This document shows positions 1,997 to 21,374 of a stretch of 36,121 nt of DNA, one piece after another. The translations under genes and the position numbers were made by a program. The DNA is taken from NCBI GenBank assembly GCA_944387735.1, contig CALXGF010000068.1, positions 1-36,121 on the forward strand, given 5' to 3'. The DNA comes from an uncultured Oscillospiraceae bacterium (GTDB lineage Bacteria; Bacillota; Clostridia; Oscillospirales; Oscillospiraceae). The notes below the pieces were generated by a model. It had not been told where the DNA came from. It worked only from the letters and a program-made list of their open reading frames with translations, and made no database searches. Positions within the stretch are counted from its first letter, which is position 1, and each line of letters begins with the position of its first letter.

Positions 1997-2008
1997 GGAG
2001 GAGCTGTG

Positions 2009-2734
2009 ATGGAGCTTAAAATTTGCCACATGTACCCGGATGTTCTGAACCTCTACGGCGACCGGGGGAATGTGATATGCATGACCAAGCGTCTTAGGTG
2101 GCGGGGCATAGAGGCCAGGGTTACAAAGCTGCCCATAGGGGACAGCCGCTCCCTGGCGGATTTCGACCTGGTATTCATAGGCGGCGGCCAGGACTTTGAG
2201 CAGCAGGTGCTGCTTTCGGACCTGCACAGGGGCAAGGACAGGGAGATAATAGCCGCCGTGGAAGACGGCGTCACCTTCCTGGCTATATGCGGCGGCTACC
2301 AGATGCTGGGCAGCTACTATGAGACCTTTGACGGGAAACGCTGCGACTTTATCGGAGCGCTGGATCTGTACACCAAGGGCTCTGTGAAGCGTATGATAGG
2401 CAATTACAAATTCAGGTGCTCCCCATCCGCCGGCGGCAGCGTAGTGGTGGGCTTTGAAAACCACAGCGGCAAGACCTGGCTGGGCAGCGGTCTGGAGCCC
2501 CTGGGGAAGGTGCTCTCCGGCTTCGGAAACAACGGAGAGGACGGCAGCGAGGGCGCCCACTACAAAAATGTCTTCGGCACCTACAGCCACGGGCCTCTGC
2601 TGCCCAAGAACCCGGAATTTTGCGATCTGGTTCTAAAGACCGCTCTGGAGCGAAAATACGGCTCCGTGGAGCTCTTGCCCCTGGACGACGGCGCAGAGCT
2701 TCTGGCCCACGACGAGATGTGCGCCAAGCTATGA
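2009..2734 (+). CDS. gatD: Lipid II isoglutaminyl synthase, glutamine amidotransferase subunit GatD (CobQ/CobB-type GATase)
   Basis: The N-terminus MELKICHMYPDVLNLYGDRGN is typical of GatD. Nucleophile Cys in AICGGYQMLG and His in GFENHSG. AAGGAGG sits 7 nt upstream of the ATG at 2009; the ORF-track start at 2006 is a GTG one codon earlier. Confidence 0.9.
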   Translation: MELKICHMYPDVLNLYGDRGNVICMTKRLRWRGIEARVTKLPIGDSRSLADFDLVFIGGGQDFEQQVLLSDLHRGKDREIIAAVEDGVTFLAICGGYQMLGSYYETFDGKRCDFIGALDLYTKGSVKRMIGNYKFRCSPSAGGSVVVGFENHSGKTWLGSGLEPLGKVLSGFGNNGEDGSEGAHYKNVFGTYSHGPLLPKNPEFCDLVLKTALERKYGSVELLPLDDGAELLAHDEMCAKL

Positions 2735-6553: not shown

Positions 6554-7114
6554 ATGGAAGACAGAGAGATAGTGGAACTGTACTGGCAGCGTTCGGAGTC
6601 CGCCATAGCGGAGACGGAGAGCAAATACGGCGCCTACTGCCGATACATCGCCCGGAATATTCTCCAGGACCGGGAGGACAGCGAGGAGTGCGTCAACGAC
6701 GCCTATCTGGGGGTGTGGAACAGCATCCCCACCAAGCGCCCTCAGGTGCTGAAGAGCTACATTGGCCGCATCACCCGGAACATCGCCCTGAACAGATACG
6801 GCAGCCTCTCCGCCGCCAAGCGGAACTTCGGCCAGGCGCCCCTGGCTCTGGAGGAGTTGGGAGACTGCGTTCCCGACCGGGACGGCTCCGACAGGCTGGC
6901 GGATGATCTCAGTCTGGCGGAGCTGCTCAATTACTTTCTCTCCTCCCTGCCGGCGGGACAGAGGAAAATCTTTGTACGCCGCTACTGGTATCTCAGTCCG
7001 GTAAAGGAGATAGCCGCCGAATACAACATCAGCGAGAGCAAGGTGAAGATGTCCCTGCTGCGCTCCAGGGACAAGCTGAGACTGCTTCTGGAAAAGGAGG
7101 GAATCTACCTGTGA
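6554..7114 (+). CDS. Sigma-70-family (ECF-like, regions 2 and 4 only) RNA polymerase sigma factor
   Basis: 186 aa. Region-2-like EECVNDAYLGVW and a region-4 HTH, YWYLSPVKEIAAEYNISESKVKMSLLRSRDKL. GGAGG lies 7 nt upstream of the ATG. Confidence 0.85.
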   Translation: MEDREIVELYWQRSESAIAETESKYGAYCRYIARNILQDREDSEECVNDAYLGVWNSIPTKRPQVLKSYIGRITRNIALNRYGSLSAAKRNFGQAPLALEELGDCVPDRDGSDRLADDLSLAELLNYFLSSLPAGQRKIFVRRYWYLSPVKEIAAEYNISESKVKMSLLRSRDKLRLLLEKEGIYL

Positions 7115-8877: not shown

Positions 8878-11004
8878 ATGAAAAAAGGGATTGCCGCAGT
8901 ATTGCTTATCTGCCTTACGCTGGTCTTTGCCTCCTGCTCCTCGGAGAAAAGAGAGACGAATTATACCGGGGGAGAGATAGCAGGAAAAGACCTGAGCGGC
9001 AGCGGAGGGGCACGTATTTTCAGCGCAAACACCATTGCCCTGCCTGGCGGAGAGGGCAAAATCACGGACGCAGTGAGGGTCGGAGACCGTATCCTCCTCT
9101 GCTCCGTAGAGGAGGGCAAAAGCTGTTTCTATTTCATGGGCGCGGATCTTGATGTAACGAAGGCGGATATTGCGCTGGATTCTGCCGTTGTTTCCATAGA
9201 CGCCGACTCCGACGGAAACATATATGTCCTGTCCATGGAACAGGACGGGAGCTATATAATAACCAAGCTCAATCCCGCTTTGGTTGTCAGCGGCACGTTG
9301 ATTTTCCCGGCCGATATGGAGGAGGCCCTATGGGACATGACCTTGGGCCCTGAGGGCTATTATATCGAGACCTTCAACAATGTCCTGTGTTACGATCTTT
9401 CTGGCAAATACACAGGAGAACTCGGCCCCTTCCAGGACGCCTTTGATGTCATAAAAAACGATACGGAGCTCATACTGGCGGTATCGGGCGATGATTACAC
9501 TCAGTTCAGCATACTCAGCGGCTTTGAGACAGGGGATACATATAAAGTCTCCATGGCCCTCAGCGGCATATCCGCCGGCCCACGGGCCGGGCATGTTTTT
9601 GCAGTCAATTCGGGAATAGTCTGGGATCTGGACTTTACTTCCGGAAACTATACAGGCTATTCAAACAGCTATGCCAGCGGGGAAGTCGGCAGTTTTATGT
9701 ACCTGTCCCCGGATGCCTATCTGTCCGTGGTCAACGGGGAACTGATGTATTACACCCTGGCCCGGCAGGGGGAGGGCAGCGAAATTCAGACTCTTGTCCT
9801 TGCCACATATGCCCGGGAGGACTATGAGATTTCCGATCTGCTCAACGGTGTAAGCCTGTTCAACGAAGCCAACGGGGATATCAAGATCGACGTGGTAAAC
9901 TACGGCATATACGACGCCGGAAATGCCGAGGGCGCCGGTCTGCAAAAGCTCTACAATGATATTAGCGCAGGAAACGCACCGGACATCTACGACCTGTCCC
10001 TCCTGCCCTACAGGACATTTTACGACAAAGCTCTGCTGGAGAATCTATATCCGTATTTTGAAAGCTCCGGGAATATAAGGGCCGAAGACCTTACGGCCAG
10101 CGTACTGAAGGCAATGGAGTATAAAGGGGCCCTGTACAACCTCGTCCCAACATACACAATCATTACAATGTACGGGCCCGGGGATGTATGTGACAGGGAA
10201 AACTGGAACGCCGGAGCCTTCCTTCAGGTAGCTGATACGGCGGACCTCAGCCTTTTCGGGCCCCAGGTCACCAGATATGAGTTTTTAAAATATCTGCTGA
10301 TGTTCAGCGGAGACGAATACATAAATGAGGAAGAAAGGAGCTGTAGCTTTACAGATTCCACATTTCCGGCCATGCTCTCTGTCGCCAGGAGTTTGCCGGA
10401 GAGCTACGACGGGGCAAACGCCGCTTCAGACGATTTGGGCCTGGTATATACGGGGCGGCAAATGTTCATATTGAGCACCAACGCAAATATTGTTTCCAGC
10501 GTCCATACGGCTGACGCCGTATATGGAGGTAACTGCGTACACGTGGGCTTTCCCTCGGACAATAACGGGGTCATGGTAAATCCATATATAAACCTGGGTA
10601 TGTCGGCAAATAGCGCGGCTAAAGAGGGGGTCTGGCGTTTCTTCGAATATCTGCTCAGCGATGGATATCAAAACGGAATAAGAAAAACCATTCCGGTAAA
10701 GAACACTGCGTTGGACGCCAGGCTGGATTCCCTCTTGTCCAAGTATCTGGAGGTACACAATGTTGTGGTTTTTGCGGATAACAACATGATAAAGGTGCCC
10801 CTTGCGCCAATAAGCGAGGACGTGAAAACAAAGGCCATGGACATCATAGACAGCGTCGACTGCGTGTATTACTGCAACGACGGTCTGTATGATTTGCTGG
10901 TTAGAGAAGCCGAGTCCTATTTCAGCGGAGATTTGAGCGTCGAAAAGGCGGCGGAAAACATTCAATCCAAGGTAAGTATTTATTTGGCGGAGCAGTACGG
11001 CTGA
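8878..11004 (+). CDS. Large lipoprotein with a repeat-like N-terminal half (possibly beta-propeller) and a solute-binding-protein (family 1)-like C-terminal half
   Basis: Signal peptide with lipobox LVFASC. The C-terminal half resembles extracellular solute-binding proteins (NAPDIYDLS, YKGALYNLVP, AKEGVWRFFEYLLS, ending AAENIQSKVSIYLAE). It is a paralogue of the 33691-35910 product. Confidence 0.65.
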   Translation: MKKGIAAVLLICLTLVFASCSSEKRETNYTGGEIAGKDLSGSGGARIFSANTIALPGGEGKITDAVRVGDRILLCSVEEGKSCFYFMGADLDVTKADIALDSAVVSIDADSDGNIYVLSMEQDGSYIITKLNPALVVSGTLIFPADMEEALWDMTLGPEGYYIETFNNVLCYDLSGKYTGELGPFQDAFDVIKNDTELILAVSGDDYTQFSILSGFETGDTYKVSMALSGISAGPRAGHVFAVNSGIVWDLDFTSGNYTGYSNSYASGEVGSFMYLSPDAYLSVVNGELMYYTLARQGEGSEIQTLVLATYAREDYEISDLLNGVSLFNEANGDIKIDVVNYGIYDAGNAEGAGLQKLYNDISAGNAPDIYDLSLLPYRTFYDKALLENLYPYFESSGNIRAEDLTASVLKAMEYKGALYNLVPTYTIITMYGPGDVCDRENWNAGAFLQVADTADLSLFGPQVTRYEFLKYLLMFSGDEYINEEERSCSFTDSTFPAMLSVARSLPESYDGANAASDDLGLVYTGRQMFILSTNANIVSSVHTADAVYGGNCVHVGFPSDNNGVMVNPYINLGMSANSAAKEGVWRFFEYLLSDGYQNGIRKTIPVKNTALDARLDSLLSKYLEVHNVVVFADNNMIKVPLAPISEDVKTKAMDIIDSVDCVYYCNDGLYDLLVREAESYFSGDLSVEKAAENIQSKVSIYLAEQYG

Positions 11005-11060
11005 GCAGGTCCCCCCGCCGTACGGTATTACATATTGAATACCGGAAGATACGGCTTGCA

Positions 11061-11098
11061 AAAAATCCGTGGGCAAGACCCACGGATTTTTATTTTTC
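11061..11098 (+). terminator. Intrinsic terminator ending the sigma/anti-sigma/lipoprotein unit
   Basis: 13-bp perfect stem AAAAATCCGTGGG / CCCACGGATTTTT with a 5-nt loop, followed by ATTTTTCC. Confidence 0.8.
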
Positions 11099-11149
11099 CG
11101 ATTTTCCCGCTTCACCAGTATATAAGCGGTGCGAGGGGTATCTTTTGCC

Positions 11150-11177
11150 TTGTAATTGCTGAAATCTGTGGTATAAT
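11150..11177 (+). promoter_or_regulatory. Candidate extended -10 promoter of the nine-gene glycan-decoration operon
   Basis: TTGTAA at 11150-11155, a 16-nt spacer ending in TGG, then TATAAT at 11172-11177 (a TGnTATAAT extended -10). It lies about 60 nt upstream of wecE. Confidence 0.55.
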
Positions 11178-11240
11178 ATGTTGGTTATTACATTGAATGT
11201 TCCGAATTGTACAAAATATGTCTTTTATGGGGGATTAATG

Positions 11241-12374
11241 ATGATACCTTTTAATGTGCCTCCCTGCACCGGCGACGAGCTGGAGTATATCCGTCAGGCC
11301 ATAGCCAACCGCAAAATATGCGGAGACGGGGAATTCACGAAAAAATGCAGCCATTGGATGGAACAGCGTTTTCATGCCCAGAAGGTGCTGCTCACCACCA
11401 GCGGCACCACCGCCCTGGATATGGCGGCCCTGCTGTGCGAGCTCCGGCCTGGGGACGAGGTCATCCTCCCCAGCTTCACCTTCTCCAGCACAGCTACCGC
11501 TTTTGTGCTGGCCGGGGCCAGGCTGGTGTTCGTGGACATCCGCCCCGACACAATGAATATAGACGAGACTAAAATAGAGGCCGCCATCACTCCCAGGACC
11601 AAGGTCATCGTACCCATGCACTATGCCGGCGTGGCCTGCGAGATGGACGCCATCATGGATATCGCCCGCCGCCACGGCCTGAAGGTGGTGGAGGACGCCG
11701 CTCAGGGCGTTATGAGCTCTTACAAGGGCCGGGCTCTGGGCACCATAGGCGACATGGGCTGCTTCTCCTTCCATGAGACCAAAAACTACTCCATGGGCGA
11801 GGGGGGAGCCCTGCTGATAAACCGGCCGGAATACAACGAGCGGGCGGAAATACTCCGGGAAAAAGGCACCAACCGCTCCAAGTTCTTCCGTGGCCAGGTG
11901 GACAAGTATACCTGGGTGGACTTCGGCGACAGCTATCTGCCCAGCGAGCTCAACGCCGCCTATCTCTGGGCCCAGCTCCTTAAGGCCGACGAGATAAACG
12001 ACAACCGCCTCAACACCTGGAACAAATACCGGGAGGCTCTCCTGCCCCTGGCCCAGTCCGGCAAGCTGGAGCTGCCCACCGTCCCGGAGGGCTGCGTCCA
12101 CAACGCCCATATGTTCTATATCAAGGCCAAGGACCTTGAAGAGCGCACAGCCCTTATCAAGCATCTCAAGGAGCGGGACATCCTGGCGGTGTTCCACTAC
12201 GTCCCGCTGCACTCCGCCCCCGCCGGCTTGAGATTCGGCCGCTTTAACGGGGAGGACCTGTATACCACCTCCCAATCCGACAGACTGCTGCGCCTGCCCC
12301 TGTACTTCGGGCTCGCCGACCAGGACAGGCAGGCCGTTATAAATGCCGTCAGGGAGTTTTATAATGAGCGCTGA
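11241..12374 (+). CDS. wecE: dTDP-4-amino-4,6-dideoxygalactose (dTDP-4-keto-6-deoxy-D-glucose) transaminase, WecE type (DegT/DnrJ/EryC1 family)
   Basis: Collinear from residue 1 with enterobacterial WecE as I recall it (MIPFNVPPCTGDELEYIRQA...KICGDGEFTKKC). PLP-lysine motif CFSFHETKN. Further matches in EKGTNRSKFFRGQVDKYTW and NAHMFYIK. The second ATG (11241) fits the GGGGGA RBS spacing better than 11238. Confidence 0.9.
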   Translation: MIPFNVPPCTGDELEYIRQAIANRKICGDGEFTKKCSHWMEQRFHAQKVLLTTSGTTALDMAALLCELRPGDEVILPSFTFSSTATAFVLAGARLVFVDIRPDTMNIDETKIEAAITPRTKVIVPMHYAGVACEMDAIMDIARRHGLKVVEDAAQGVMSSYKGRALGTIGDMGCFSFHETKNYSMGEGGALLINRPEYNERAEILREKGTNRSKFFRGQVDKYTWVDFGDSYLPSELNAAYLWAQLLKADEINDNRLNTWNKYREALLPLAQSGKLELPTVPEGCVHNAHMFYIKAKDLEERTALIKHLKERDILAVFHYVPLHSAPAGLRFGRFNGEDLYTTSQSDRLLRLPLYFGLADQDRQAVINAVREFYNER

Positions 12375-13872
12375 GGCCGGAGCTTCTCTCTCCAAGGGCA
12401 AAGACGGATATCTGCGGCTCCTAGCCGCCCTGTTCCTTGTCGCCTCGCCTCTTATAATCATGCTCATGCTGTCCCTGCTGTCGGGCCACAACATGTTCCT
12501 GTCCAAGCCCGTCTTTAACGACGAGCTGGATTACTGGCGGCTCATGTATTCCATAAGCTGTCAGGGCTTTGACTTCGGCTCCACGGAGCATTTGGTGGGC
12601 TACGTCGCCCCTATAGGGCCTCTGGGCAGCCACGGCCTGTCGCCGGTGGCGGCCTGGCTGTGGTATGTGCTGCTCTTCCCCATGAGCGACAGCGCCCTGG
12701 TCATCGCCGGAGTGATAATGCTCTCCGCCGCCTTTGCCCTGCTGTGCCTTATAGCCAGGCCCAGCTCCAGGGAAATGCTGCTCATGGGACTGTTCACCCT
12801 GCTCTATCCCCCTCTGGTGAGGTATATTAACCTCTCCATGATGGAGATGCCCTGCTATGCCTGCGTAATCGTCTACATGGCCCTGCTATGGCGCTATGAA
12901 AAGGAGCGCCGGGGACTTATGCCCCCCTCCCGCCGGACTCTGCCTCTGCTGCTTCTCTGCGGCTTCTACTGCACGCTGCTGCGTATGAGCAACGTAGCCT
13001 TGTTCTTCCCCGCCATGCTCATTTTCTGCGACAACAGGCTGAGCCTGAAGCTCTTCATATGCCTGGTTCTCTACGCTCTGGGCACTCTGGCCTTCAACTA
13101 TTGCTTTTCCCTTTTCGTGGCCCCATACCCGGATGTGCTGTACAATCTGATGCAAAGCGGCAGCCTGGGCGAACTGCTTCAGGGCCTGTGGCTCAACATC
13201 AGGGGCAATATCATAAATTTTCTGGACCCCGGCTCGGACAATTCCCCGCCCCAGGCCGCAGCCCGGTATTTCTATCTGCTTTTGCTGCTCCTGCTCTTGG
13301 GAAAGACCCTGCTTAAAAGACAGGACGGCAGGCTGAGCTTCACATGGCGCTGGGATTACTTCGGAGTATTTATCTCCGCCGCCGGCTGCCTGGCCCTGGT
13401 CATAATGATATATTTCGTCTTCGACTGGCGGGATTACCGCACTCTCGCCCCCATAGCCTACTGCGTCGGTCTGTGGCTGCTGCTGCGCTGGGACCGGGAG
13501 GGCCGGGGCTTTAAAGCCGCCCTTGCCGCCGTGCTGCTTTTCGGCGTGCTCATGGCCCCGGAAGCCTACAGCCATGTGGCCTCCGACCCCCGCTTCTATC
13601 CGGACGAGTCCACCGGCCTTGATTACTCTCAGCTCTTCGGAGAGGAGAGCTGCACTCTTGGCCTCTACGGCAGCGATTATGACCTGGCCCTTATGAAAGA
13701 CGTGCCGCCTAATGTGGGTATCTGCGGCGGTATCTATGAGGAAAATACCCACGGCTACGGTATGGACTACATTCTGTCCAGGCCCGGCGACCCCGTGCCC
13801 TCCTCTGAATACTATGAGTACTACGGCCCCATGGAGGGCTATGGGGAGCTTTACCGGCGCCTTAATCCCTGA
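12364..13872 (+). CDS. Polytopic membrane protein (about 11 TM segments plus about 100 aa of C-terminal soluble domain), candidate GT-C-fold glycosyltransferase (ArnT/YfhO/GacL role)
   Basis: The ATG overlaps the end of wecE by 11 nt. The first extracytoplasmic loop after TM1 carries the acidic motif NDELDYW (D53-E54). About 11 hydrophobic segments follow. No family is recognisable by eye, so the function is contextual. Confidence 0.5.
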   Translation: MSAEAGASLSKGKDGYLRLLAALFLVASPLIIMLMLSLLSGHNMFLSKPVFNDELDYWRLMYSISCQGFDFGSTEHLVGYVAPIGPLGSHGLSPVAAWLWYVLLFPMSDSALVIAGVIMLSAAFALLCLIARPSSREMLLMGLFTLLYPPLVRYINLSMMEMPCYACVIVYMALLWRYEKERRGLMPPSRRTLPLLLLCGFYCTLLRMSNVALFFPAMLIFCDNRLSLKLFICLVLYALGTLAFNYCFSLFVAPYPDVLYNLMQSGSLGELLQGLWLNIRGNIINFLDPGSDNSPPQAAARYFYLLLLLLLLGKTLLKRQDGRLSFTWRWDYFGVFISAAGCLALVIMIYFVFDWRDYRTLAPIAYCVGLWLLLRWDREGRGFKAALAAVLLFGVLMAPEAYSHVASDPRFYPDESTGLDYSQLFGEESCTLGLYGSDYDLALMKDVPPNVGICGGIYEENTHGYGMDYILSRPGDPVPSSEYYEYYGPMEGYGELYRRLNP

Positions 13873-13885
13873 TAAGGAGGATTCC

Positions 13886-14440
13886 ATGAACATTTTTGAC
13901 CCCTGCGACCTGCCTGTCATCAATGGGGAAAAGGTCTCCCTTCGCCCTATCGCCAGGGAGGACACTCCCCTTATAGTCGCCTGGCGCAACAAGCCCTCGG
14001 TGTACCGGCACTTTATCTTCCGCCAGCCCTTTACCCGCCAGCTCCATGAGAACTGGCTCAAAACCAGGGTGGACACCGGCAAAGTCATCCAATACATCAT
14101 CATGGAAAATCCCAGCCGCCGCCCCATCGGCAGCGTCTATTTCCGGGACCTTGACCCGGAAAACGAGAGCGCCGAATACGGCATCTTCATCGGCGAAGAG
14201 GACTGCCTTGGCAGGGGCCTGGGTACGGAGACCGCAAAGCTCTTCGTCCGCTTCGGCCTGGATGTGCTGAAGCTGCACCGGATAAGTCTGAGGGTGCTGG
14301 GCGGCAACGACATTGCCCGGCGCAGCTATGAGAAGGCCGGCTTCGTTACCGAGGGAGTCTTTAAGGATATGGTAAAGCTGGACGGGAAATACCGGGACCT
14401 CAGCTTTATGGCCATTATTAACGAGGAGGGAGAGACTTGA
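13886..14440 (+). CDS. GNAT N-acetyltransferase, PseH/RimL-like (predicted amino-sugar N-acetyltransferase)
   Basis: Internal start MNIFD with AAGGAGG upstream. LRPIAREDTPLIVAWRNKPSVYRHF...LHENWL resembles the PseH-type N-terminus. Acetyl-CoA motif LGRGLGTE. Confidence 0.8.
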   Translation: MNIFDPCDLPVINGEKVSLRPIAREDTPLIVAWRNKPSVYRHFIFRQPFTRQLHENWLKTRVDTGKVIQYIIMENPSRRPIGSVYFRDLDPENESAEYGIFIGEEDCLGRGLGTETAKLFVRFGLDVLKLHRISLRVLGGNDIARRSYEKAGFVTEGVFKDMVKLDGKYRDLSFMAIINEEGET

Positions 14441-15375
14441 AACTTGTATCTTTTGTAATACCCTGCTATTGCTCGCAGAATACCATAGGTTCAGTTGTGG
14501 ACGAGATAGAGAGGACCATGCCCTCCCTCCCCCAGTACGACTACGAGATAGTCCTGGTAAACGACTGCTCCCCGGACGACACCTTTTCCGTCCTCTCCGC
14601 CCTGGCGGAAAAGGACGGGCGCATAACCGCCGTTGACCTGACCCGAAACTTCGGCCAGCACGGCGCCCTGATGGCGGGCTTTCATCACTGCCGCGGGGAT
14701 ATCGTGGTCTGCCTGGACGACGACGGACAGACCCCTGCCGACGAGGTGGGCAAGCTCCTCAGCAAGCTGGAGGAGGGCTACGACGTGGTCTACGCCTCCT
14801 ACGAGCATAAACAGCACTCCAGGTTCCGCAACTGGGGCACCCGCATAAACAACAAAATGACGGAGATAATGCTGGGCAAGCCCAAGGACCTGTCCATCCC
14901 CAGCTATCTGGCGGCCAAGCGCTTTATTATTGATGAGATGCTTAACTACAAGCACTGCTTTCCCTATGTGGACGGGCTTGTGCTCCGCTCCACCCGCAGG
15001 ATCTGTAACGTGCCGGTGAACCACCGGCAAAGGCAGCAGGGGGAGTCCGGCTACACTATCGGCAAGCTCCTCAGCCTGTGGATGAACGGCTTCACCTCCT
15101 TTTCCGTCAAGCCCCTGCGCCTGGCTACCTACGCCGGAGTCTTCACCGCCTTCCTGGGCTTTATCTATGCTCTGGTCATTGTAATAAAACATTTCATCGA
15201 CAGCAGCGTCCCCGCCGGCTGGAGCTCCACCATGGCCCTGCAGCTGGTGCTGGGAGGCATAATCCTGGTGGTCCTGGGCCTTATCGGTGAATATATCGGG
15301 CGCATATACATGTGCATCAACGCCTCCCCCCAGTTTGTGGAGCGACAGGTGGTAAAAAAGGACAGTGAGAGCTGA
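14437..15375 (+). CDS. GT2-family polyprenyl-phosphate glycosyltransferase (ArnC/GtrB/CsbB-like), copy A
   Basis: The TTG start overlaps the GNAT stop (TTGA). GT-A motifs VIPCY, VNDCSPDDT and LDDDGQ. Two C-terminal TM helices (YAGVFTAFLGFIYALVIVI and ALQLVLGGIILVVLGLIGEY) are typical of Und-P glycosyltransferases. Confidence 0.85.
   Translation: MKLVSFVIPCYCSQNTIGSVVDEIERTMPSLPQYDYEIVLVNDCSPDDTFSVLSALAEKDGRITAVDLTRNFGQHGALMAGFHHCRGDIVVCLDDDGQTPADEVGKLLSKLEEGYDVVYASYEHKQHSRFRNWGTRINNKMTEIMLGKPKDLSIPSYLAAKRFIIDEMLNYKHCFPYVDGLVLRSTRRICNVPVNHRQRQQGESGYTIGKLLSLWMNGFTSFSVKPLRLATYAGVFTAFLGFIYALVIVIKHFIDSSVPAGWSSTMALQLVLGGIILVVLGLIGEYIGRIYMCINASPQFVERQVVKKDSES
14761..14803 (+). repeat. 43-nt run identical to 17610-17652 (inside GT2 copy A)
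   Basis: AGCAAGCTGGAGGAGGGCTACGACGTGGTCTACGCCTCCTACG occurs in both GT2 genes, while flanking synonymous sites have diverged. Confidence 0.9.
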
Positions 15376-15377
15376 AC

Positions 15378-15743
15378 ATGGAAAAATCCAACAAGAAGGT
15401 ATTTATCGCCCTGCATCTGCTGCTGCTGTTCTATTCCCTGTCCTCGGTGCTCTCCAAGCTGGCGGCGGCGGAGGATTTTCTCAGTTTTAAATTCTGCCTG
15501 TACTATGGGGGAATGTTCTGTATCCTGGTCATCTACGCCCTTGGCTGGCAGCAGATACTCAAGCGTCTTCCCCTCACCGTGGCTTTCGCCAACAAGGCGG
15601 TGACCCTGGTGTGGAGCATGGTCTTCGGCGCCCTGCTCTTCAAAGAGCAAATACAGCTCAATCAGCTCATAGGCTGCGCCCTGGCCGTGGCCGGGGTAAT
15701 ACTCTTCGTACAGCCTGAGAAAGACGGGGAGGCGCAGCCATGA
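15378..15743 (+). CDS. Small 4-TM DMT/EamA-half-size membrane protein, ArnE/ArnF-like flippase subunit
   Basis: 121 aa with four hydrophobic segments. Starts 2 nt after the GT2 stop. Paired with a second small 4-TM protein, as ArnE/ArnF are. Confidence 0.65.
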   Translation: MEKSNKKVFIALHLLLLFYSLSSVLSKLAAAEDFLSFKFCLYYGGMFCILVIYALGWQQILKRLPLTVAFANKAVTLVWSMVFGALLFKEQIQLNQLIGCALAVAGVILFVQPEKDGEAQP

Positions 15744-16087
15744 CAAGGGAAATGCTGCCATATCTGTTTATCGGCTTTTTCAGCGTCTTTGTCTCCTCCG
15801 TGTCTCAGACGGTTTTGAAAAAAGCTTCCCTCACAGAGCATAAGAGCTTTATCCGGGAATACCTGAATCTCCCTGTCATCCTGGCCTACGGCATGTTCTT
15901 CTCCAGCACCCTGCTGACCATGCTGGCCTACAAAAAGCTGCCCCTCAGCATGAGTCCCGCCTTTGAGAGCAGCTCCTATATCTTTGTCACCATCTTCGGC
16001 GTCACTATCTTTAAGGAAAAGGTGGGCCGCCGCAAGCTTTTCGCTCTCTTCCTGATACTCCTGGGCATTATCATATTCACCCTGTGA
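15740..16087 (+). CDS. Small 4-TM DMT/EamA-half-size membrane protein, ArnE/ArnF-like flippase subunit (partner)
   Basis: 115 aa with four hydrophobic segments. ATGA overlap with the preceding gene. Confidence 0.65.
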   Translation: MTREMLPYLFIGFFSVFVSSVSQTVLKKASLTEHKSFIREYLNLPVILAYGMFFSSTLLTMLAYKKLPLSMSPAFESSSYIFVTIFGVTIFKEKVGRRKLFALFLILLGIIIFTL

Positions 16088-16098
16088 TTGGAGCCGCC

Positions 16099-17271
16099 AT
16101 GGACAACAAGAAAAAAAATATAATAATAATCGGCGCAAACGAATTTCAGAATCCCCTCATTCTCTCCGCTAAGGCCATGGGCTACGCCACCCATGTCTTC
16201 GCCTGGCAGAGCGGCGACCTGGGGGAACGCAGCGCAGATTATTTCTATCCTATCAGCATAGTGGAGACGGACAGGATTCTGAACATCTGCCGTATGCTCT
16301 CCCCGGCGGGCGTGGTCTCCATTGGCTCGGACCTGGCCGCCATAACCGTAAACTACATCGCCCAGGAGCTGGGCCTTACCGGCAACGGTATGGAAAGCGC
16401 CATGGCAGCCACCAACAAGCACCTCATGCGCCTGGCCTTTGAAAAGGCGGGGCTGCCCTCCTGCAAAAGCCGCCTGGTATCTTCTCCTGTGGAGGCGGAG
16501 GCCCTAAAGCTCGCTTACCCCGTCATCGTCAAGCCCACGGACCGCTCCGGCAGCCGGGGCGTCTTCAAGGTGACGGAGCCCTCCCAGCTGCCCTCAGCCA
16601 TAGAGAAGGCCATGGGCCACTCCTTTGAAAAGAAAGCTCTGGTGGAGGAATTTGCCCCCGGCAGGGAATACAGCATAGAGTACCTATCCTGGCAAGGCGA
16701 GCATCACTTCCTGGCCTGCACAGAGAAATTTACCACCGGCGCCCCCCTATTTGTGGAGACCGGGCACCTTCAGCCCCCCCTGCATATGACGGAGGACCTT
16801 CTCGGCCAAATACAGGACCTGGTTCCCAGAGTTCTGGACTGCTTGGGTATCCGCTTCGGCGCCTCCCACACGGAGCTGAAAATAGACGAGAACGGGAAAA
16901 TCCGTATCATAGAGTGCGGCGGCCGTATGGGGGGGGACTGCATCGGCTCAGACCTGGTATACATCAGCCGGGGCGTGGACTTCGTGGGAGCCTGCGTTGA
17001 CGTATCCTGCGGCAAAGCCCCGGATCTGAGGCCCAAGCAGCCGCCTCGTATCTCCGCCATACGCTTTATATTCAATCAGCGGGACCTGGACGACCTGGAG
17101 CTTATCCGCCGCAATCATCCCCAGGCTATATACCGCATAAGCGATATTCTTCCCCTGGACGGTCGGGAGATAAGCGACAGTTCCACCCGCTACGGCTTCT
17201 ATATCCTGGCCACCGAAACTATGGAAGAAATGCAGGACATCCTGAGCAAGCTTGACTTTGATTTGAACTGA
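16099..17271 (+). CDS. ATP-grasp carboxylate-amine ligase (L-amino-acid-ligase/PurK-like fold)
   Basis: MDNKKKNIIIIGANEFQ forms a pre-ATP-grasp Rossmann-like N-terminus. Further motifs: YPVIVKPTDRSGSRGV, EEFAPGREYSIE and SHTELKIDENGKIRIIECGGRMGGD (Mg/ATP site). GGAG lies 5 nt upstream of the ATG. An alternative GTG at 16084 overlaps the upstream stop. Confidence 0.85.
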   Translation: MDNKKKNIIIIGANEFQNPLILSAKAMGYATHVFAWQSGDLGERSADYFYPISIVETDRILNICRMLSPAGVVSIGSDLAAITVNYIAQELGLTGNGMESAMAATNKHLMRLAFEKAGLPSCKSRLVSSPVEAEALKLAYPVIVKPTDRSGSRGVFKVTEPSQLPSAIEKAMGHSFEKKALVEEFAPGREYSIEYLSWQGEHHFLACTEKFTTGAPLFVETGHLQPPLHMTEDLLGQIQDLVPRVLDCLGIRFGASHTELKIDENGKIRIIECGGRMGGDCIGSDLVYISRGVDFVGACVDVSCGKAPDLRPKQPPRISAIRFIFNQRDLDDLELIRRNHPQAIYRISDILPLDGREISDSSTRYGFYILATETMEEMQDILSKLDFDLN

Positions 17272-17285
17272 CTGGGTGTTTTCCT

Positions 17286-18227
17286 ATGAAACTTGTGTCC
17301 TTTGTTATACCCTGCTACCGCTCTGCGTCCACTATCTCCTCAGTAGTGGCGGAGATAAACTCCGCTATGGAGGACCTGCCGGACTATGGCCATGAGATAG
17401 TCCTGGTGAACGACTGCTCCCCGGACGGCACCTTCTCCGTTATAGAGGGCCTCGCCCGGTTGGACAGACGCATTATTGCAGTTGACCTGGCCAAAAACTT
17501 CGGCCAGCACGCCGCCATCATGGCGGGCCTCCGCCATTGCGGCGGAGACTATATAGTCTGTCTAGATGACGACGGCCAGACCCCGGCCGATGAAGTGGGG
17601 AAGCTTCTGAGCAAGCTGGAGGAGGGCTACGACGTGGTCTACGCCTCCTACGGCCACCACAAGCAGCACAGCTTTTTCCGCAATTTCGGCAGCTGGCTCA
17701 ACGGCAAGATGACGGAAATAATGCTGGGCAAGCCCAAAAATCTCTCCCTTACCAGCTATTTTGCCGCCCAACGCTTCATTATAGACGAGATGCTCCGCTA
17801 TGAGCATTGCTTCCCCTATGTGATGGGCCTGGTGCTGCGCTCAACCAAAAACATCTGTAATGTGCCTGTAAACCACCGGCAGCGCCGGGAGGGCAGCTCC
17901 GGCTATACCCTGGGCAAGCTGCTGAACCTGTGGATGAACGGCTTCACCTCCTTCTCCATAAAGCCCCTGCGCCTGGCCAGCTACCTGGGCTGTCTCACCG
18001 CATTTATAGGCTTTATCTACGCCATAATAATCGTTATTAGATACTTTACCGTACACATGGCCCCTATGGGCTGGAGCTCAACCACCGCTCTGCTGCTTAT
18101 CCTGGGCGGCATCATACTGCTGGTGCTTGGCCTGGTGGGAGAATATGTGGGGCGCATATTCATGTGCATCAACGCTTCTCCACAGTATGTGGAGCGGAAA
18201 GTCGTCAAAAACGGAAGGGAGGAATAA
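17286..18227 (+). CDS. GT2-family polyprenyl-phosphate glycosyltransferase (ArnC/GtrB/CsbB-like), copy B
   Basis: About 74% identical to copy A by my hand alignment (roughly 231 of 313 residues). Same GT-A motifs and the same two C-terminal TM helices. Confidence 0.85.
   Translation: MKLVSFVIPCYRSASTISSVVAEINSAMEDLPDYGHEIVLVNDCSPDGTFSVIEGLARLDRRIIAVDLAKNFGQHAAIMAGLRHCGGDYIVCLDDDGQTPADEVGKLLSKLEEGYDVVYASYGHHKQHSFFRNFGSWLNGKMTEIMLGKPKNLSLTSYFAAQRFIIDEMLRYEHCFPYVMGLVLRSTKNICNVPVNHRQRREGSSGYTLGKLLNLWMNGFTSFSIKPLRLASYLGCLTAFIGFIYAIIIVIRYFTVHMAPMGWSSTTALLLILGGIILLVLGLVGEYVGRIFMCINASPQYVERKVVKNGREE
17610..17652 (+). repeat. 43-nt run identical to 14761-14803 (inside GT2 copy B)
   Basis: Same 43-mer as in copy A. 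A second shared run of 27 nt lies at 15075-15101 and 17927-17953. Confidence 0.9.
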
Positions 18228-18229
18228 AC

Positions 18230-19030
18230 ATGGCCGTATTGGGATTTATAGGCGTGGGCAACATGGGCGGCGCCCTGGCCAGGGCCGCTGCGGCGAGGGT
18301 GCCCGGTTCTTCCCTGCTGCTGGCAAACCGCAGCCGTGAAAAGGCGGAAAAGCTGGCGGCGGAGCTGGGGGCCGTGGTCTCGGACAATTTCTCCGTCGCC
18401 GCTCGGGCCGACTATATTTTCCTGGCAGTCAAACCCCAGGCGCTCCCCGGGGTACTGGCGGAGCTGGCGCCGGCGCTGGCCGGGAGAAAAAGCCCCTTCG
18501 TGCTTGTAAGCATGGCAGCCGGAACCTCTATAGAAAAAGTCCGGCAGCTCGCCGGGGACGCCTGGCCGGTGATACGCATTATGCCCAATACCCCCGCTTC
18601 CATAGGCAAGGGCATGATACTCTATGCCCCCGGCCCCGATGTCCCGGAGGAGCGGCTGAAAGAATTTCTGGAGCTCATGTCCGGCGCCGGACGCTTTACC
18701 CGTCTGGAGGAGCGGCTCATAGACGCCGGGTCCTCCGTCTCAGGCTGCGGCCCGGCCTTTGCCGACCTGTTTATCGAGGCTCTGGCTGACGGGGGAGTGG
18801 CCTGCGGGCTGCCCCGCTCCGCCGCTGTGGAGCTGGCCGCCCAGATGCTCCTGGGCTCGGCGGCCCTGGCGCTGGAAAGCGGAAAGCATCCCGGAGAACT
18901 TAAGGACGCCGTATGCTCCCCCGGGGGCACCACCATTCAGGGAGTGAGAGTCCTGGAAAAAAGCGGCTTTCGCAGCGCAGTCATGGAGGCCGTTATAGCC
19001 GCCTACGAAAAAAATTTTGATCTGAAATAA
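18230..19030 (+). CDS. proC: Pyrroline-5-carboxylate reductase
   Basis: Internal start MAVLGFIGVGNMGGALA (NADPH Rossmann motif). Further motifs: IMPNTPASIGKG, SGCGPAF and CSPGGTTI. The ATG lies 2 nt after the GT2-B stop. Confidence 0.9.
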   Translation: MAVLGFIGVGNMGGALARAAAARVPGSSLLLANRSREKAEKLAAELGAVVSDNFSVAARADYIFLAVKPQALPGVLAELAPALAGRKSPFVLVSMAAGTSIEKVRQLAGDAWPVIRIMPNTPASIGKGMILYAPGPDVPEERLKEFLELMSGAGRFTRLEERLIDAGSSVSGCGPAFADLFIEALADGGVACGLPRSAAVELAAQMLLGSAALALESGKHPGELKDAVCSPGGTTIQGVRVLEKSGFRSAVMEAVIAAYEKNFDLK

Positions 19031-19051
19031 TTTATCCGATTATCCTCAAAA

Positions 19052-19098
19052 ATCTGCCGTATACGGAAAGACTCCGTATACGGCAGATCTTTTATTTT
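19052..19098. terminator. Bidirectional intrinsic terminator between proC (+) and the LysR gene (-)
   Basis: 15-bp perfect stem ATCTGCCGTATACGG / CCGTATACGGCAGAT with a 7-nt loop, then CTTTTATTTT. An A-run upstream could serve the minus strand. Confidence 0.85.
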
Positions 19099-19122
19099 CC
19101 CGACGTTTACCTGTCTAAAAAC

Positions 19123-20094
19123 TCACTTGTTTGCCCAGGCATCCAGCGAACCCTTAGTGTAGTCGGCAAAAAACTTTTTGAAACTGTCCAGCAGCTCCTG
19201 GGTGCCGCCGTGAAGTACTCTCTCCTTGTGGAAGTAGGCGCAGACCCTGTCGATATCCGGCAGATAGGGCAGAGGGAACACATAGATGTTCTTCAGATAG
19301 TCGTTTTGCAGCTCCCTGCCCACCAGGTCCCAGAAGATGCGCGGGTATATGAACACCCCCAGGCCGCTGTTTGCCAGCTGGAAGGCGTTCTCCATATTGG
19401 TCAGCTCGCAGATAAAGCGGGGACTTATATCGTAATACTTGAGATAGCTGGCCAGAGTCCGTCCTCCGGAGGACTGGGGCGGTATCTTTATAAACGGCGC
19501 CTTTTCAAAATATCTCAGGTCGGCGCACTGGGCAAAGCCCTCCGCCACGGAACCGCAGTCCTCTCCGGCAAGGCTTTTCATTATGCTCTTTGGCACCACC
19601 AGCAGCTGTTCCTTTTTGCACAGCTCAACCGTCTCATAGCTCTCCGGCGTGCTGGTAATGGAGCCTATGACCAGGTCCACACCGTCGTGAGTCACCGCCT
19701 TTTGCAGCACTTCCGGGGAAGCCTCGTTCAACTTCACGTAGGTGTCAGGATGGCCCCGGAGATACGCCGGCAATACATAGGGCAACACCGCCCTGGCCAC
19801 CGTGTGCTCAATACCCATGTGTATATACTGGCTGCCGGCGCTGCCCCGGTTGGTGTTCTCCTCATACTGCTGTTTTAAATGCAGTATCTCCTTGGCTACC
19901 CGTAAAAATTGCATCCCGTCCCTGGTGAGGCCCAGGGGGCGGCTGCGCACAAAGAGCTGAGTGCCCAGCTCCTCCTCCAGCTTGGCTATCTGCTTGGAGA
20001 GAGATTGCTGAGAGATAAACAAGTGCTGCGCCGCTACAGATATACTCTTCTCGTCGGCCACAGCAATAAAACTTTTTAACAGTGAAAAATCCAT
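19123..20094 (-). CDS. LysR-family transcriptional regulator
   Basis: N-terminal wHTH MDFSLLKSFIAVADEKSISVAAQHLFISQQSLSKQIAKLEEELGTQLF plus a substrate-binding-type C-terminal domain. Divergent from the TAXI-TRAP genes. Confidence 0.9.
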   Translation of the reverse strand: MDFSLLKSFIAVADEKSISVAAQHLFISQQSLSKQIAKLEEELGTQLFVRSRPLGLTRDGMQFLRVAKEILHLKQQYEENTNRGSAGSQYIHMGIEHTVARAVLPYVLPAYLRGHPDTYVKLNEASPEVLQKAVTHDGVDLVIGSITSTPESYETVELCKKEQLLVVPKSIMKSLAGEDCGSVAEGFAQCADLRYFEKAPFIKIPPQSSGGRTLASYLKYYDISPRFICELTNMENAFQLANSGLGVFIYPRIFWDLVGRELQNDYLKNIYVFPLPYLPDIDRVCAYFHKERVLHGGTQELLDSFKKFFADYTKGSLDAWANK

Positions 20095-20298
20095 TTGCCC
20101 TTTCTCCGCTTATCCGGCTGCGGGGGACCCTGAGCTCCCCGAAAGCCAATTCCAATATTTGCCGTTATTTTTTTGTCAAGCCCTGAATGTCGCTAAAAAT
20201 TTTCTTGCATTGTGCACAATACAGCCTATATATTTCCTTGGTTTTCTGTTACTTATGCAAATGTATGAAAAAACTGTTGCCGGCTTTCAAAAAAACTA

Positions 20299-20327
20299 TT
20301 GCTTTTCTCAACTTTCGGTTGTATTAT
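20299..20327 (+). promoter_or_regulatory. Candidate sigma-70 promoter (TTGCTT, 17-nt spacer, TATTAT) for the TAXI-TRAP genes
   Basis: Hexamers at 20299-20304 and 20322-20327. A second candidate (TTGCAT at 20205-20210, 16-nt spacer, TATATA at 20227-20232) overlaps the palindrome at 20209-20220. I cannot choose between them. Confidence 0.3.
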
Positions 20328-20417
20328 AAACGCAGATAAAGCGTAATGCAAGAGCAATTTGTGTTATGCCCATTAAATTTTTTGTTTCTCTAGGGAGACT
20401 AAATCAGGAGGTCAAGT

Positions 20418-21374
20418 ATGAAAAAGATCATTGCAATCGTTGCACTTCTGTGCATGGTATTTGCCCTGTGCGCCTGCGGAGGCGGCAGCAAGGGAGAAGC
20501 ACTGACTTTCACCACCGGCGGTGAGACGGGTACATACTACGGTTTCGGCAGCGTTATCGCCCAGTATGTTTCCGCCAACACCGACCTTTCCGTCACCGCC
20601 GTCACCAGCAACGGCTCCCAGGCCAACATTGAGGATATGGATGCAGGCTCTTATCAGCTTGGCTTCTGCCAGTCCGCCGTTATGAGCTACGCCTATGCCG
20701 GCACCAACCTCTTTGACGAGACCGGCGCCGTCACCAGCTTCTCTGTTGTAGCTTCTCTGTATATGGAGCAGGTTCAGATCGTCACCATGAACCCCGACAT
20801 CAAGACCGTTGAAGATCTGCGCGGCAAGAGCGTTTCCATCGGCGCTCTGGGCTCCGGCGTCTACTATAACGCCATCGACGTTCTGGGTGTCTACGGCATG
20901 ACCGAGGCCGACATCAACCCCGTTTACCAGAGCTTCGGCGACAGCGCCGAGAGCCTGAAGGACGGTAAGATCGACGCCGCCTTCATCGTGGCCGGCGCTC
21001 CCACCACCGCCATCACCGACCTCTCCACCGGCGGCCAGGTCTACCTGGTGAGCATTGATGACGAGCACATTGACCAGCTCATCGCCAAGTCTCCCTACTA
21101 CAGCAAGTACACCGTTACCGCCGACACCTACGGTATGCCTGAGGATGCTCAGACCGTGGCTATCGCCGCCGTTATCCTGGCCCGTGACGACGTCTCCGAG
21201 GATGCGGTCTACACCTTCGTGTCCACCATCTTCGACAACGTGGATCAGCTCCAGCACGGCAAGGCCGCCGAGCTTGACCTGGCCTTTGCCTCCAGCATTA
21301 CCGACGTGCCCTACCACCCCGGCGCCGCCAAGTACTTCTCCGAGAAGGGCATTGAGGTAGCTTCCGTCAAGTAA
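20418..21374 (+). CDS. TAXI-family TRAP transporter solute-binding lipoprotein
   Basis: Signal peptide with Cys (ALCACGGG). The TAXI signature TFTTGGETGTYYGFG is present. About 320 aa. The fused TRAP permease follows. Confidence 0.9.
   Translation: MKKIIAIVALLCMVFALCACGGGSKGEALTFTTGGETGTYYGFGSVIAQYVSANTDLSVTAVTSNGSQANIEDMDAGSYQLGFCQSAVMSYAYAGTNLFDETGAVTSFSVVASLYMEQVQIVTMNPDIKTVEDLRGKSVSIGALGSGVYYNAIDVLGVYGMTEADINPVYQSFGDSAESLKDGKIDAAFIVAGAPTTAITDLSTGGQVYLVSIDDEHIDQLIAKSPYYSKYTVTADTYGMPEDAQTVAIAAVILARDDVSEDAVYTFVSTIFDNVDQLQHGKAAELDLAFASSITDVPYHPGAAKYFSEKGIEVASVK

Follow-up and report, generated by a model that had tools for sequence, protein, structure and literature searches.

An operon from a gut Oscillospiraceae bacterium that probably encodes a transmembrane glycosylation system for a derivatised 4-amino-4,6-dideoxyhexose

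Multi-component glycosylation systems of Gram-positive bacteria, such as CsbB/GtcA/YfhO, GtlA/GtlB, CsdA-F/CflA and GacI-L, share a logic in which a GT2 enzyme makes a C55-P-sugar, a small flippase takes it across the membrane and a polytopic GT-C glycosyltransferase uses it outside (PMC8035078). Those that have been characterised add Glc, Gal or GlcNAc taken from UDP-sugars, and several of their GT-C enzymes have no Pfam domain (PMC8035078). Here we describe an operon with the same logic on a 36,121-nucleotide stretch (hereafter the window) of contig CALXGF010000068.1, assembly GCA_944387735.1, from an uncultured Oscillospiraceae bacterium. Its nine genes, g1 to g9 (Table 1), specify in order a WecE-type aminotransferase, a polytopic membrane protein, a GNAT acetyltransferase, a GT2 enzyme, two half-size DMT/EamA proteins, an ATP-grasp ligase, a second GT2 enzyme and ProC. 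Judging from its gene content and from related clusters, the operon probably encodes a multi-component ("three-component") transmembrane glycosylation system whose donor would be a derivatised 4-amino-4,6-dideoxy-D-galactose. The core of the system appears to be WecE, the ATP-grasp ligase, an ArnC/GtrB-type GT2 enzyme and the two DMT proteins, a combination of which we found no characterised example. The host is a Gram-positive monoderm gut anaerobe, Candidatus Limivicinus (Clostridia), and the metagenome-assembled genomes in which relatives of g2 occur likewise bear the names Candidatus Limivicinus or Oscillospiraceae (Bacillota, Clostridia).

The nature of the donor sugar is indicated by g1. 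The g1 product scored 642 bits against TIGR02379 (cut-off 435) and 639 bits against NF008687 (cut-off 375), aligned over its full length with WecE of Escherichia coli (4piw; 572 bits; ~67% identity, counted by hand from the alignment) and keeps the SFHETKNY catalytic-lysine motif. We regard its predicted identity as a WecE equivalog as well supported and, because of the identity to E. coli WecE and the conserved lysine motif, its product should be dTDP-4-amino-4,6-dideoxy-D-galactose (dTDP-Fuc4N). A sugar of this type had been proposed in a first-pass annotation of the window, and the match to both WecE models and the close relationship to the E. coli enzyme strongly back that proposal. In the first step of the pathway that we envisage, RmlA and RmlB, encoded elsewhere, would provide dTDP-4-keto-6-deoxy-D-glucose, and g1 would transaminate it to dTDP-Fuc4N. 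A true RmlB lies beside the module in one related locus, L061 (TIGR01181, 483 bits; cut-off 365), which fits a dTDP-4-keto-6-deoxyglucose precursor. Note that a short-chain dehydrogenase/reductase (SDR) of 330-340 residues found in distant clusters was also considered as a possible RmlB and was rejected, as it scored far below the cut-off for dTDP-glucose 4,6-dehydratases; only the L061 neighbour is genuine.

The most constant partner of WecE in related loci proved to be the ATP-grasp ligase. A scan of metagenomes with an ATP-grasp profile gave more than 528 matches, from which 80 loci were fetched, and features were counted within 7 kb of the ATP-grasp gene in the 30 loci flanked by 5 kb or more on each side. 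WecE was present in 27 of these 30 loci, an ArnC-like GT2 enzyme in 23 and a DMT pair in 21; WecE, the DMT pair and the GT2 enzyme occurred together in 19 loci, 15 of which also encoded a polytopic protein of at least 450 residues with at least eight transmembrane (TM) helices. A g3-type GNAT, proC and a member of the g2 family were each found at a single locus (1/30), the same Limivicinus locus in all three cases, and the ATP-grasp ligase belongs to a far larger family than g2 does. The first-pass annotation had placed the ATP-grasp ligase among the non-canonical extras of the pathway; its association with WecE, together with its fusion to a GNAT in some genomes, makes it part of the core instead. 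The same counts indicate that homologous clusters are not always housed within Wzx/Wzy loci, as the earlier interpretation demanded. The WecE-ATP-grasp pair was found without a DMT pair in 8 of the 30 loci, some of them Wzx/Wzy-type clusters, and there are loci that encode Wzx-like (Polysacc_synt, MurJ, MatE) and Wzy-like (EpsG, O_anti_polymase) proteins. Our reading is that the sugar made by WecE and the ATP-grasp ligase is used in two ways, either in a three-component route with an interchangeable GT-C enzyme or in ordinary Wzx/Wzy clusters. The latter use, and the occurrence of the pair without DMT proteins, therefore argue that the substrate of the ligase is the soluble nucleotide sugar.

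The g7 product matched ATP-grasp_4 (77.8 bits), scored under the cut-off of every NCBIfam equivalog and had as its top relatives in the Protein Data Bank (PDB) the L-amino-acid ligases BL00235 (3vot; E = 6e-22) and BacD. With its one amine and its lack of a carboxylate, Fuc4N can serve an amide ligase only as the nucleophile. In the second step, g7 would thus use ATP to join a carboxylate, most likely that of an amino acid, to the single amine of the sugar, which would also pull the transamination forward. The g3 product matched Acetyltransf_3 (75.7 bits), had AAC(6') and SpeG as its top PDB relatives and belongs to the RimJ/SpeG/AAC(6')/PseH branch of GNAT enzymes, which acetylate primary amines; its NCBIfam matches were to PseH (70 bits; cut-off 93), SpeG and AAC(6') models, with no WecD model among them. 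In the third step, the amino acid so attached would be acetylated by g3 on its free amine, to yield an N-(N-acetyl-aminoacyl)-Fuc4N nucleotide.

A plainer scheme would have the GNAT acetylate dTDP-Fuc4N itself, as WecD does, in which case the donor would be undecaprenyl phosphate (Und-P)-Fuc4NAc and the ATP-grasp ligase would perform a separate job, for example dipeptide synthesis or modification of the acceptor. The top sugar-related model for g3, PseH, does acetylate a sugar 4-amine, the canonical logic of enterobacterial common antigen (ECA) synthesis has an acetyltransferase act after WecE, and locus L015 has a GT-C-like gene, a GNAT gene and a GT2 gene yet lacks an ATP-grasp gene. However, it is the ATP-grasp gene and not a g3-type GNAT gene that constantly accompanies wecE, several proteins are fusions of the two enzymes, g3 is not WecD, and once the one amine of Fuc4N had been capped by the GNAT, an amide ligase would be left without a target in the pathway. 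We consider simple Fuc4NAc decoration improbable. At its simplest, the joint role of g7 and g3 would be to aminoacylate the sugar and then to N-acetylate the amino acid, and since no other protein accompanies WecE as constantly as the ATP-grasp ligase, which is also found fused to GNAT domains, the sugar is probably N-(acetyl-aminoacyl)-Fuc4N rather than Fuc4NAc. Thus, the N-acylated sugar of the first-pass annotation is retained as to its acylation, with plain Fuc4NAc probably giving way to the acetyl-aminoacyl form. Among the amide-linked groups recorded for E. coli O antigens are glycine, N-acetylglycine, L-alanine and N-acetyl-L-serine (PMC7685785).

The arrangement of these genes, and apparently the acyl group, differ between lineages. 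One group of loci has the order WecE-GNAT-GT2-DMT-DMT-ATP-grasp, without a GT-C gene, second GT2 gene or proC, and another has the order WecE-GT2-DMT-DMT-[GNAT fused to ATP-grasp]-GT2. Natural fusions of ~570 residues with an N-terminal GNAT and a C-terminal ATP-grasp domain, homologous to g3 and g7, were seen in P0113, P0119, P0127, P0143 and at L021 7703-9430; these fusions sit inside clusters of the WecE-GT2-DMT-DMT-...-GT2 type. Locus L061 (8822-16167) encodes, after its RmlB and in this order, a 722-residue ATP-grasp protein fused to a pyridoxal phosphate (PLP) enzyme, a second ATP-grasp protein, a DMT pair, a GT2 enzyme and WecE. The PLP enzyme belongs to the D-cysteine desulfhydrase/ACC deaminase/CuyA family, and the gene set hints at an unusual acyl group. 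At L041 (4356-12135), an SDR, an acetolactate-synthase (AHAS)-like thiamine diphosphate enzyme and a second, PRK12767-type ATP-grasp protein are encoded between the WecE/ATP-grasp pair and the GT2/DMT genes, which suggests yet another side chain. Because other tailoring genes stand in for the GNAT at L061 and L041, the acyl group probably varies between lineages.

The two GT2 enzymes are those expected of a route through a lipid-linked sugar. The g4 product matched Glycos_transf_2 (104 bits) and aligned over its full length with ArnC (9hwj; 173 bits) and GtrB (5ekp; 138 bits); a weaker match was to dolichol-phosphate mannose synthase, and all three are polyprenyl-phosphate glycosyltransferases. 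A hydropathy scan found the two C-terminal TM helices previously noted for a GT2 enzyme of the operon in both g4 (residues 232-250 and 266-284) and g8, which has the same domain and TM layout, so that each has the make-up of a membrane-anchored GT-A (GT2) polyprenyl-phosphate sugar synthase. The two proteins are 74% identical and have an intact DDD motif. They share an identical run of 35 residues around this motif and differ chiefly near residues 11-35 and 121-135. Between strains, g4 varies more than g8 (77-96% vs 84-90% identity), and a second GT2 enzyme is also present outside Limivicinus (L016, L021, L025, L026 and L029). Francisella reportedly has two ArnC paralogues, FlmF1 and FlmF2, that use different donors, a precedent for such a pair within one organism and a possible model for g4 and g8. 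In the fourth step, g4, g8 or both would load the modified sugar onto Und-P on the inner side of the membrane; the family assignment is well supported, and the donor is the one that the pathway would deliver.

The DMT proteins g5 and g6 are the candidate flippase, by virtue of their size, pairing and position. Each is of 115-121 residues with three hydrophobic segments by hydropathy scan; g5 and g6 matched EamA with 32.8 and 27.2 bits, respectively, gave weak SMR matches under the cut-off and no GtrA match, and are 26% identical to each other over a local alignment of 66 residues. In related loci, g5 is always paired with g6, and the 21 DMT pairs counted above lie beside a GT2 gene. In the fifth step, the g5/g6 pair would flip the lipid-linked sugar, as has been proposed for ArnE/ArnF.

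The last step is ascribed to g2, a protein whose sequence matches nothing in Pfam or NCBIfam, PMT_2 included, and for which a profile search of PDB sequences also returned nothing. A word-indexed search of 5.8 billion proteins turned up only 41 relatives of g2; in an exhaustive profile search, 1,131 representative clusters passed E <= 1e-3, and 104 of these passed E <= 1e-30. Ten distant relatives, some of fusion length, gave in Pfam just sub-threshold matches at chance level in two of the ten (E 0.004-0.005). The AlphaFold (AF2) model of g2, built from 16 sequences, has ~11-12 helices (pLDDT 79.5, pTM 0.81), and when it was compared with the PDB by Foldseek, ranks 1-9 were all GT-C glycosyltransferases at probabilities of 0.97-1.00, namely DPY19 (three entries, ranks 1-3), ALG9 (two), ArnT, Pmt4, AftA and EmbC. 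Residues D53, E54, Y57, W58 and R59, just after the first TM helix, are invariant in the g2 alignment, as are R207, R301, R356 and R359. GT-C enzymes are distinguished by an acidic motif in their first outside loop (PMC8035078). As far as prediction goes, g2 thus combines a GT-C fold with an acidic loop motif, and both the fold and the invariant D53-E54 pair speak for the GT-C-like character that the first-pass annotation had given it. From its predicted fold and genomic context, g2 appears to be GT-C-like and to lie outside every described sequence family. In the sixth step, g2 would attach the sugar to an extracytoplasmic acceptor such as a teichoic acid, wall polysaccharide or surface protein.

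Could g2 instead be a transporter, or a polymerase- or ligase-like polytopic protein, with the GT2 enzymes acting on a non-lipid acceptor? The lack of sequence similarity to known GT-C families and TM-scores below 0.5 would allow this, but the nine best structural matches are exclusively GT-C enzymes, with transporters entering the list from rank 10 at probabilities of ~0.3 or less and TM-scores of 0.11-0.15; moreover, the acidic pair in the first loop is invariant, and the GT2 enzymes match ArnC and GtrB over their full length. Genomic context argues in the same direction. Distant homologues of g2 (29-33% identity) adjoin DegT/WecE aminotransferase genes and genes for dTDP-sugar enzymes, and known GT-C enzymes occupy the place of g2 in homologous clusters. 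In particular, among 52 distinct large polytopic neighbours drawn from all fetched loci, and not just from the 30, 10 matched YfhO, three DUF6056, two DUF2142, and one each DUF6077, DUF6020 and GtrII. YfhO and GtrII are known GT-C transferases, and the four DUF families are presumably GT-C-like as well. We judge it very improbable that g2 is something other than a glycosyltransferase, and read the neighbours as non-orthologous transferases of the same kind that have displaced g2 in related clusters.

Several further polytopic proteins were seen in related loci. Proteins of ~575-606 residues with 8-10 TM helices adjoin the GT2/DMT module at L071 (12921-14648) and also at L035, L087 and L098; the L071 protein, the sole member scanned separately, has no Pfam match, and these proteins may be another uncatalogued GT-C-like family. 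At L015 (7284-13025), the cluster consists only of the GT-C-like gene (g2 ~32% identity), a GNAT gene, a GT2 gene and genes for a 381-residue protein and an Acyl_transf_3 protein. L016 (9938-18173; g2 ~32% identity) has in addition the ATP-grasp gene, the DMT pair, a second GT2 gene and genes for proteins of 381 and 395 residues, and the version of the cluster at L015 and L016 adjoins a different TRAP transporter.

The Foldseek matches also raise the question of whether surface proteins (S-layer proteins, pilins or adhesins) are O-glycosylated by the system, in the manner of PgfS/PgfM of Streptococcus mutans or of PMT/DPY19, rather than a wall polymer. The top matches of g2 (DPY19 and Pmt4) modify proteins, and g4 and g8 scored 166 and 158 bits, respectively, with the PgfS model. 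Those scores are, however, far under the cut-off of 500; ArnT, ALG9, AftA and EmbC score similarly to the protein-modifying enzymes, so that a fold match cannot separate acceptors; and related clusters often use YfhO, whose characterised representatives glycosylate teichoic acids (PMC8035078). Protein glycosylation as the function of the system is, in our estimation, distinctly unlikely, and g2 is taken here as a transferase that could serve any of the extracytoplasmic acceptors given above.

Within Limivicinus, no other gene of the operon is ever as poorly conserved as g2, which has 53-81% identity between relatives compared with 77-97% for the other genes. At L011, for example, DctM and the TRAP solute-binding protein are 98% identical to their counterparts here and the other operon genes 81-97%, but g2 is just 53% identical. 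The alleles of g2 are mosaic: identity between allele types is 85-100% over the first ~60 residues and at the C-terminal end, and only 31-50% in alignment columns 241-340. The GT-C gene is thus the lineage-specific and most variable element of the cluster, and by analogy with serotype-specific Gtr transferases its mosaicism suggests recombinational exchange of a cassette in the part of the protein that probably faces the acceptor.

The earlier annotation had named proC, together with the ATP-grasp ligase and the two GT2 enzymes, as part of what matched no characterised system. If proC were a working part of the pathway, so that the nine genes made up one functional unit, the ATP-grasp ligase might attach a cyclic imino acid produced by the reductase, proline or another one. 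The g8-proC junction is only 2 nt, with gaps of 2 to 8 nt throughout Limivicinus loci, genes of amino acid metabolism lie inside the clusters of other lineages (the PLP fusion at L061, and the AHAS-like and SDR genes at L041), and Fuc4N in LOS-IV of Mycobacterium marinum is said to be N-acylated with a pyrrolidone-type acid. Against this, proC is found within the cluster only in Limivicinus loci, and clusters outside Limivicinus all lack it, even where the ATP-grasp ligase is 69-70% identical. The g9 product passes as a ProC equivalog (TIGR00112, 261 bits, cut-off 197; P5CR_dimer, 135 bits) and belongs to a smooth series of homologues with 67-72% identity across Oscillospiraceae, one of which (68% identical) is encoded in a proB-proA-proC operon of Oscillibacter and another in an unrelated context. 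The order of the nine genes is kept in 12 relatives (11 complete loci, and L002, which is cut at g1), as is that of the downstream LysR and TRAP genes; because the whole order is kept, linkage within Limivicinus says little on its own and may merely reflect shared ancestry. A part for proC in the pathway is therefore unlikely. We believe, from the distribution of its homologues, that proC is most likely a housekeeping passenger of ordinary proline synthesis that shares the transcript owing to its position immediately downstream of the cluster.

The reading of the operon as a transmembrane glycosylation system with an aminoacylated donor has to be set against a number of points that weigh on the other side. 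For g2, the TM-scores of the Foldseek matches relative to the query are only 0.37-0.50, with E-values of 4e-4 to 2e-2, the loop with D53/E54 has a pLDDT of only ~40-55, and profile-profile comparison (hhalign) of the g2 family with YfhO, DUF2142, DUF6056 and other polytopic neighbours gave probabilities of at most 3%. The match of g5 and g6 to the ArnE and ArnF models is weak (19-32 bits against cut-offs of 92-99), two GT2 enzymes with 74% identity are without an explained role, and we know of no characterised enzyme of the ArnC/GtrB type that uses a dTDP-linked donor. The substrate of the ATP-grasp ligase is not readable from its sequence, and a g3-type GNAT is absent from most distant clusters, so acetylation is not general. 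Finally, the organism is known only from metagenome-assembled genomes, and the metagenomic loci are partly redundant, with near-duplicates from different samples, so that the counts over 30 loci overstate independence.

The operon itself is compactly built. Nine genes on the + strand (11238-19030) lie between a promoter with a TG-extended -10 box and a terminator with a 16-bp stem, which are the top-ranked promoter-like and terminator-like sites within 10500-20500; both flanking signals are as first annotated, and so, by Pfam and NCBIfam scans, are the gene families. The junctions from g1 to g9 measure -11, +13, -4, +2, -4, -4, +14 and +2 nt, so no gap exceeds 14 nt, as had been claimed. Three start/stop overlaps had also been claimed: with the starts used here there are four, and there would be three if g7 began at ATG 16099, which may be its start to judge from homologues of 390 residues. 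The start of g1 was taken as 11238, a longer open reading frame (ORF) from 11178 abutting the -10 box directly, and that of g9 is ATG 18230 and not 18227. Internal promoter-like and terminator-like sites were rejected as boundaries because they were no better than shuffled expectation, and Rfam and tRNA scans found no leader riboswitch, RNA element or tRNA. The promoter and terminator scan and the junction lengths thus give no sign of separate transcription units, consistent with the single unit proposed at first.

The remaining window is ordinary chromosome (Table 1). The MurT/GatD pair is consistent with a monoderm cell wall; a PHP protein is also encoded, and a MatE transporter is encoded on the - strand. 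A possible anti-sigma factor is the 571-residue protein, whose gene overlaps that of the extracytoplasmic function (ECF)-type sigma factor. The 708-residue lipoprotein gene directly upstream of the operon is swapped, in the close relatives L011 and L008, for ~1.3 kb of different DNA, both flanks still aligning, and the position is a strain-variable slot for surface proteins. The genes for the sigma factor, the 571-residue protein and the lipoprotein were considered as members of the system and rejected, since they are unlinked to the cluster in L001 and similar loci, the lipoprotein gene also for its replacement in L011 and L008. Downstream of the operon lie a divergent LysR regulator gene, TRAP transporter genes and addAB. 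Consistent with the first-pass annotation, no Wzx, Wzy, initiating phosphoglycosyltransferase, RmlA or RmlB was found among the large ORFs of the window that were scanned.

Table 1. Features of the operon and of the DNA upstream of it, with positions in the window
Feature	Position	Strand	Description	Basis or remark
MurT/GatD pair	623-2734		lipid II isoglutamine amidation	
Amidohydro_1 gene	2754-4019			
ECF-type sigma factor	6554-7114			overlaps start of 571-residue protein gene
571-residue protein	7111-8826			no Pfam match
708-residue lipoprotein gene	8878-11004		directly upstream of operon	weak SBP_bac_1 match
upstream terminator	11061-11091	+	13-pair stem and T run	closes upstream lipoprotein gene; 5' boundary of unit
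promoter	11150-11177	+	sigma-70-type, TTGTAA-16-TATAAT, TG before -10	10/12 matches
g1	11238-12374	+	predicted WecE-type dTDP-4-keto-6-deoxy-D-glucose 4-aminotransferase, giving dTDP-Fuc4N	TIGR02379, NF008687
g2	12364-13872	+	502 residues, polytopic, GT-C-like, uncatalogued family; proposed final extracytoplasmic glycosyltransferase	predicted fold and context
g3	13886-14440	+	GNAT N-acetyltransferase, PseH/SpeG/AAC(6')-like	Acetyltransf_3
g4	14437-15375	+	ArnC/GtrB-type polyprenyl-phosphate GT2, two C-terminal TM helices	Glycos_transf_2
g5	15378-15743	+	half-size DMT/EamA protein, candidate flippase subunit	EamA
g6	15740-16087	+	second half-size DMT/EamA protein, candidate flippase subunit	EamA
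g7	16084-17271	+	putative ATP-grasp amide ligase, L-amino-acid-ligase-like	ATP-grasp_4
g8	17286-18227	+	second ArnC/GtrB-type GT2, g4 paralogue	Glycos_transf_2
g9	18230-19030	+	proC, pyrroline-5-carboxylate reductase	TIGR00112
operon terminator	19052-19098	+	intrinsic; stem 19052-19088, 16 pairs (8 GC), 5-nt loop, then CTTTTATTTT	

Almost nothing is known of the surface glycopolymers of gut Oscillospiraceae, an abundant and for the most part uncultured group, and of other Clostridia; such polymers govern how phages adsorb, how the immune system recognises the cells and how well the cells resist cationic peptides. The operon opens a testable path towards a new surface sugar, amino-acid-bearing Fuc4N, would add a further kind of sugar to the Glc, Gal and GlcNAc of the three-component scheme in Gram-positive bacteria, proposes a concrete role for an uncharacterised ATP-grasp family with more than 528 metagenomic matches, and flags a GT-C-like family of ~1,100 representative clusters that has no Pfam entry. 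A mosaic, fast-diverging GT-C gene in an otherwise conserved operon suggests variation of the surface at the level of strains, comparable to that brought about by serotype-converting Gtr enzymes. A broader and more tentative possibility, which we would not yet favour, is that g2 founds a new glycosyltransferase family, with none of its ~1,100 representative clusters in public data annotated, that the module is a widespread, unrecognised route by which gut Clostridia attach aminoacylated 4-amino-6-deoxyhexoses to surface proteins or wall polymers, and that the GT-C gene is swapped between strains as a serotype-like cassette. If this were true, lineages without the GNAT would keep the free amine of the amino acid, a charge modification borne by the sugar and comparable in role to D-alanylation or to the addition of 4-amino-4-deoxy-L-arabinose (Ara4N).

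How, then, does the operon compare with the systems that it most resembles? With the Arn pathway it would share a DegT-family aminotransferase followed by N-acylation, an ArnC-type GT2 enzyme that loads Und-P (ArnC being the closest solved relative of g4), a heterodimeric pair of small four-TM proteins, in the operon a candidate flippase, and a GT-C enzyme, in the operon a predicted one, as the final transferase. In contrast to the Arn pathway, the sugar would be dTDP-Fuc4N instead of UDP-Ara4N and its acylation would be due to an ATP-grasp ligase and a GNAT, not to a formyltransferase; furthermore, lipid A cannot be the acceptor because the host is a monoderm. The scores with the Arn models were 194 bits for ArnB (cut-off 631), 199 and 180 bits for ArnC (cut-off 529), 24 and 32 bits for ArnE (cut-off 92) and 19 and 22 bits for ArnF (cut-off 99), and no domain of ArnA (decarboxylase/formyltransferase), of the deformylase ArnD or of ArnT (PMT_2) was found among the operon products with Pfam and NCBIfam. 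The Fuc4NAc branch of ECA (RmlA/RmlB-WecE-WecD) has in common with the operon a WecE equivalog and, in the scheme proposed here, acylation of the amine afterwards, but WecD, WecF, WzxE and WzyE have no counterpart in the operon, which would route a monosaccharide to Und-P and not into a repeat unit linked to Und-PP. Because equivalog models are not matched and accessory genes are missing, the operon falls outside both the Arn and the ECA pathways.

Other comparisons concern single steps. The FlmF1/FlmF2/NaxD/FlmK system of Francisella and LgmABC of Bordetella are reported to modify lipid A with amino sugars through an ArnT-like GT-C enzyme; these systems are said to be Gram-negative, to use galactosamine or glucosamine, to need a deacetylase and to lack WecE and an ATP-grasp ligase. 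The E. coli O121 and O114 antigens carry N-acetylglycine and N-acetyl-L-serine, respectively, on sugars (PMC7685785). Such O antigens with amide-linked amino acids are a structural precedent that matches the ATP-grasp and GNAT pair, but differ in being assembled in the cytoplasm by Gram-negative Wzx/Wzy clusters. To our knowledge, the ligases for those O antigens have not been characterised as members of the ATP-grasp family of g7. A three-component pentofuranose system of Citrobacter youngae O1 contains a GT-C enzyme without sequence similarity to others, which was recognised by predicted fold and context, turned out to be the final transferase and founded CAZy family GT136 (PMC11127046). That system differs from the present one in its use of Und-P-ribofuranose made from phosphoribosyl pyrophosphate, in its MATE-type flippase and in its Gram-negative O-antigen acceptor.

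Our literature searches found no description of a module of WecE, ATP-grasp ligase, GT2 enzyme and DMT pair, in line with the earlier view that the cluster corresponds to no known characterised system. Its nearest likeness remains the multi-component systems of Gram-positive bacteria, the more so as YfhO itself is used in related clusters that carry the WecE/ATP-grasp module. Unlike those systems, the operon would use a WecE-derived, acylated 4-amino-4,6-dideoxyhexose as donor, has a half-size DMT/EamA pair as its candidate flippase in place of a GtrA-type or Wzx-type protein, draws its GT-C-like protein from a different, uncatalogued family and carries the sugar-building genes within the same operon. 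What would set it apart from the characterised systems is thus the donor sugar, its tailoring by an ATP-grasp ligase and a GNAT, the candidate DMT-pair flippase and the family of the GT-C-like protein.

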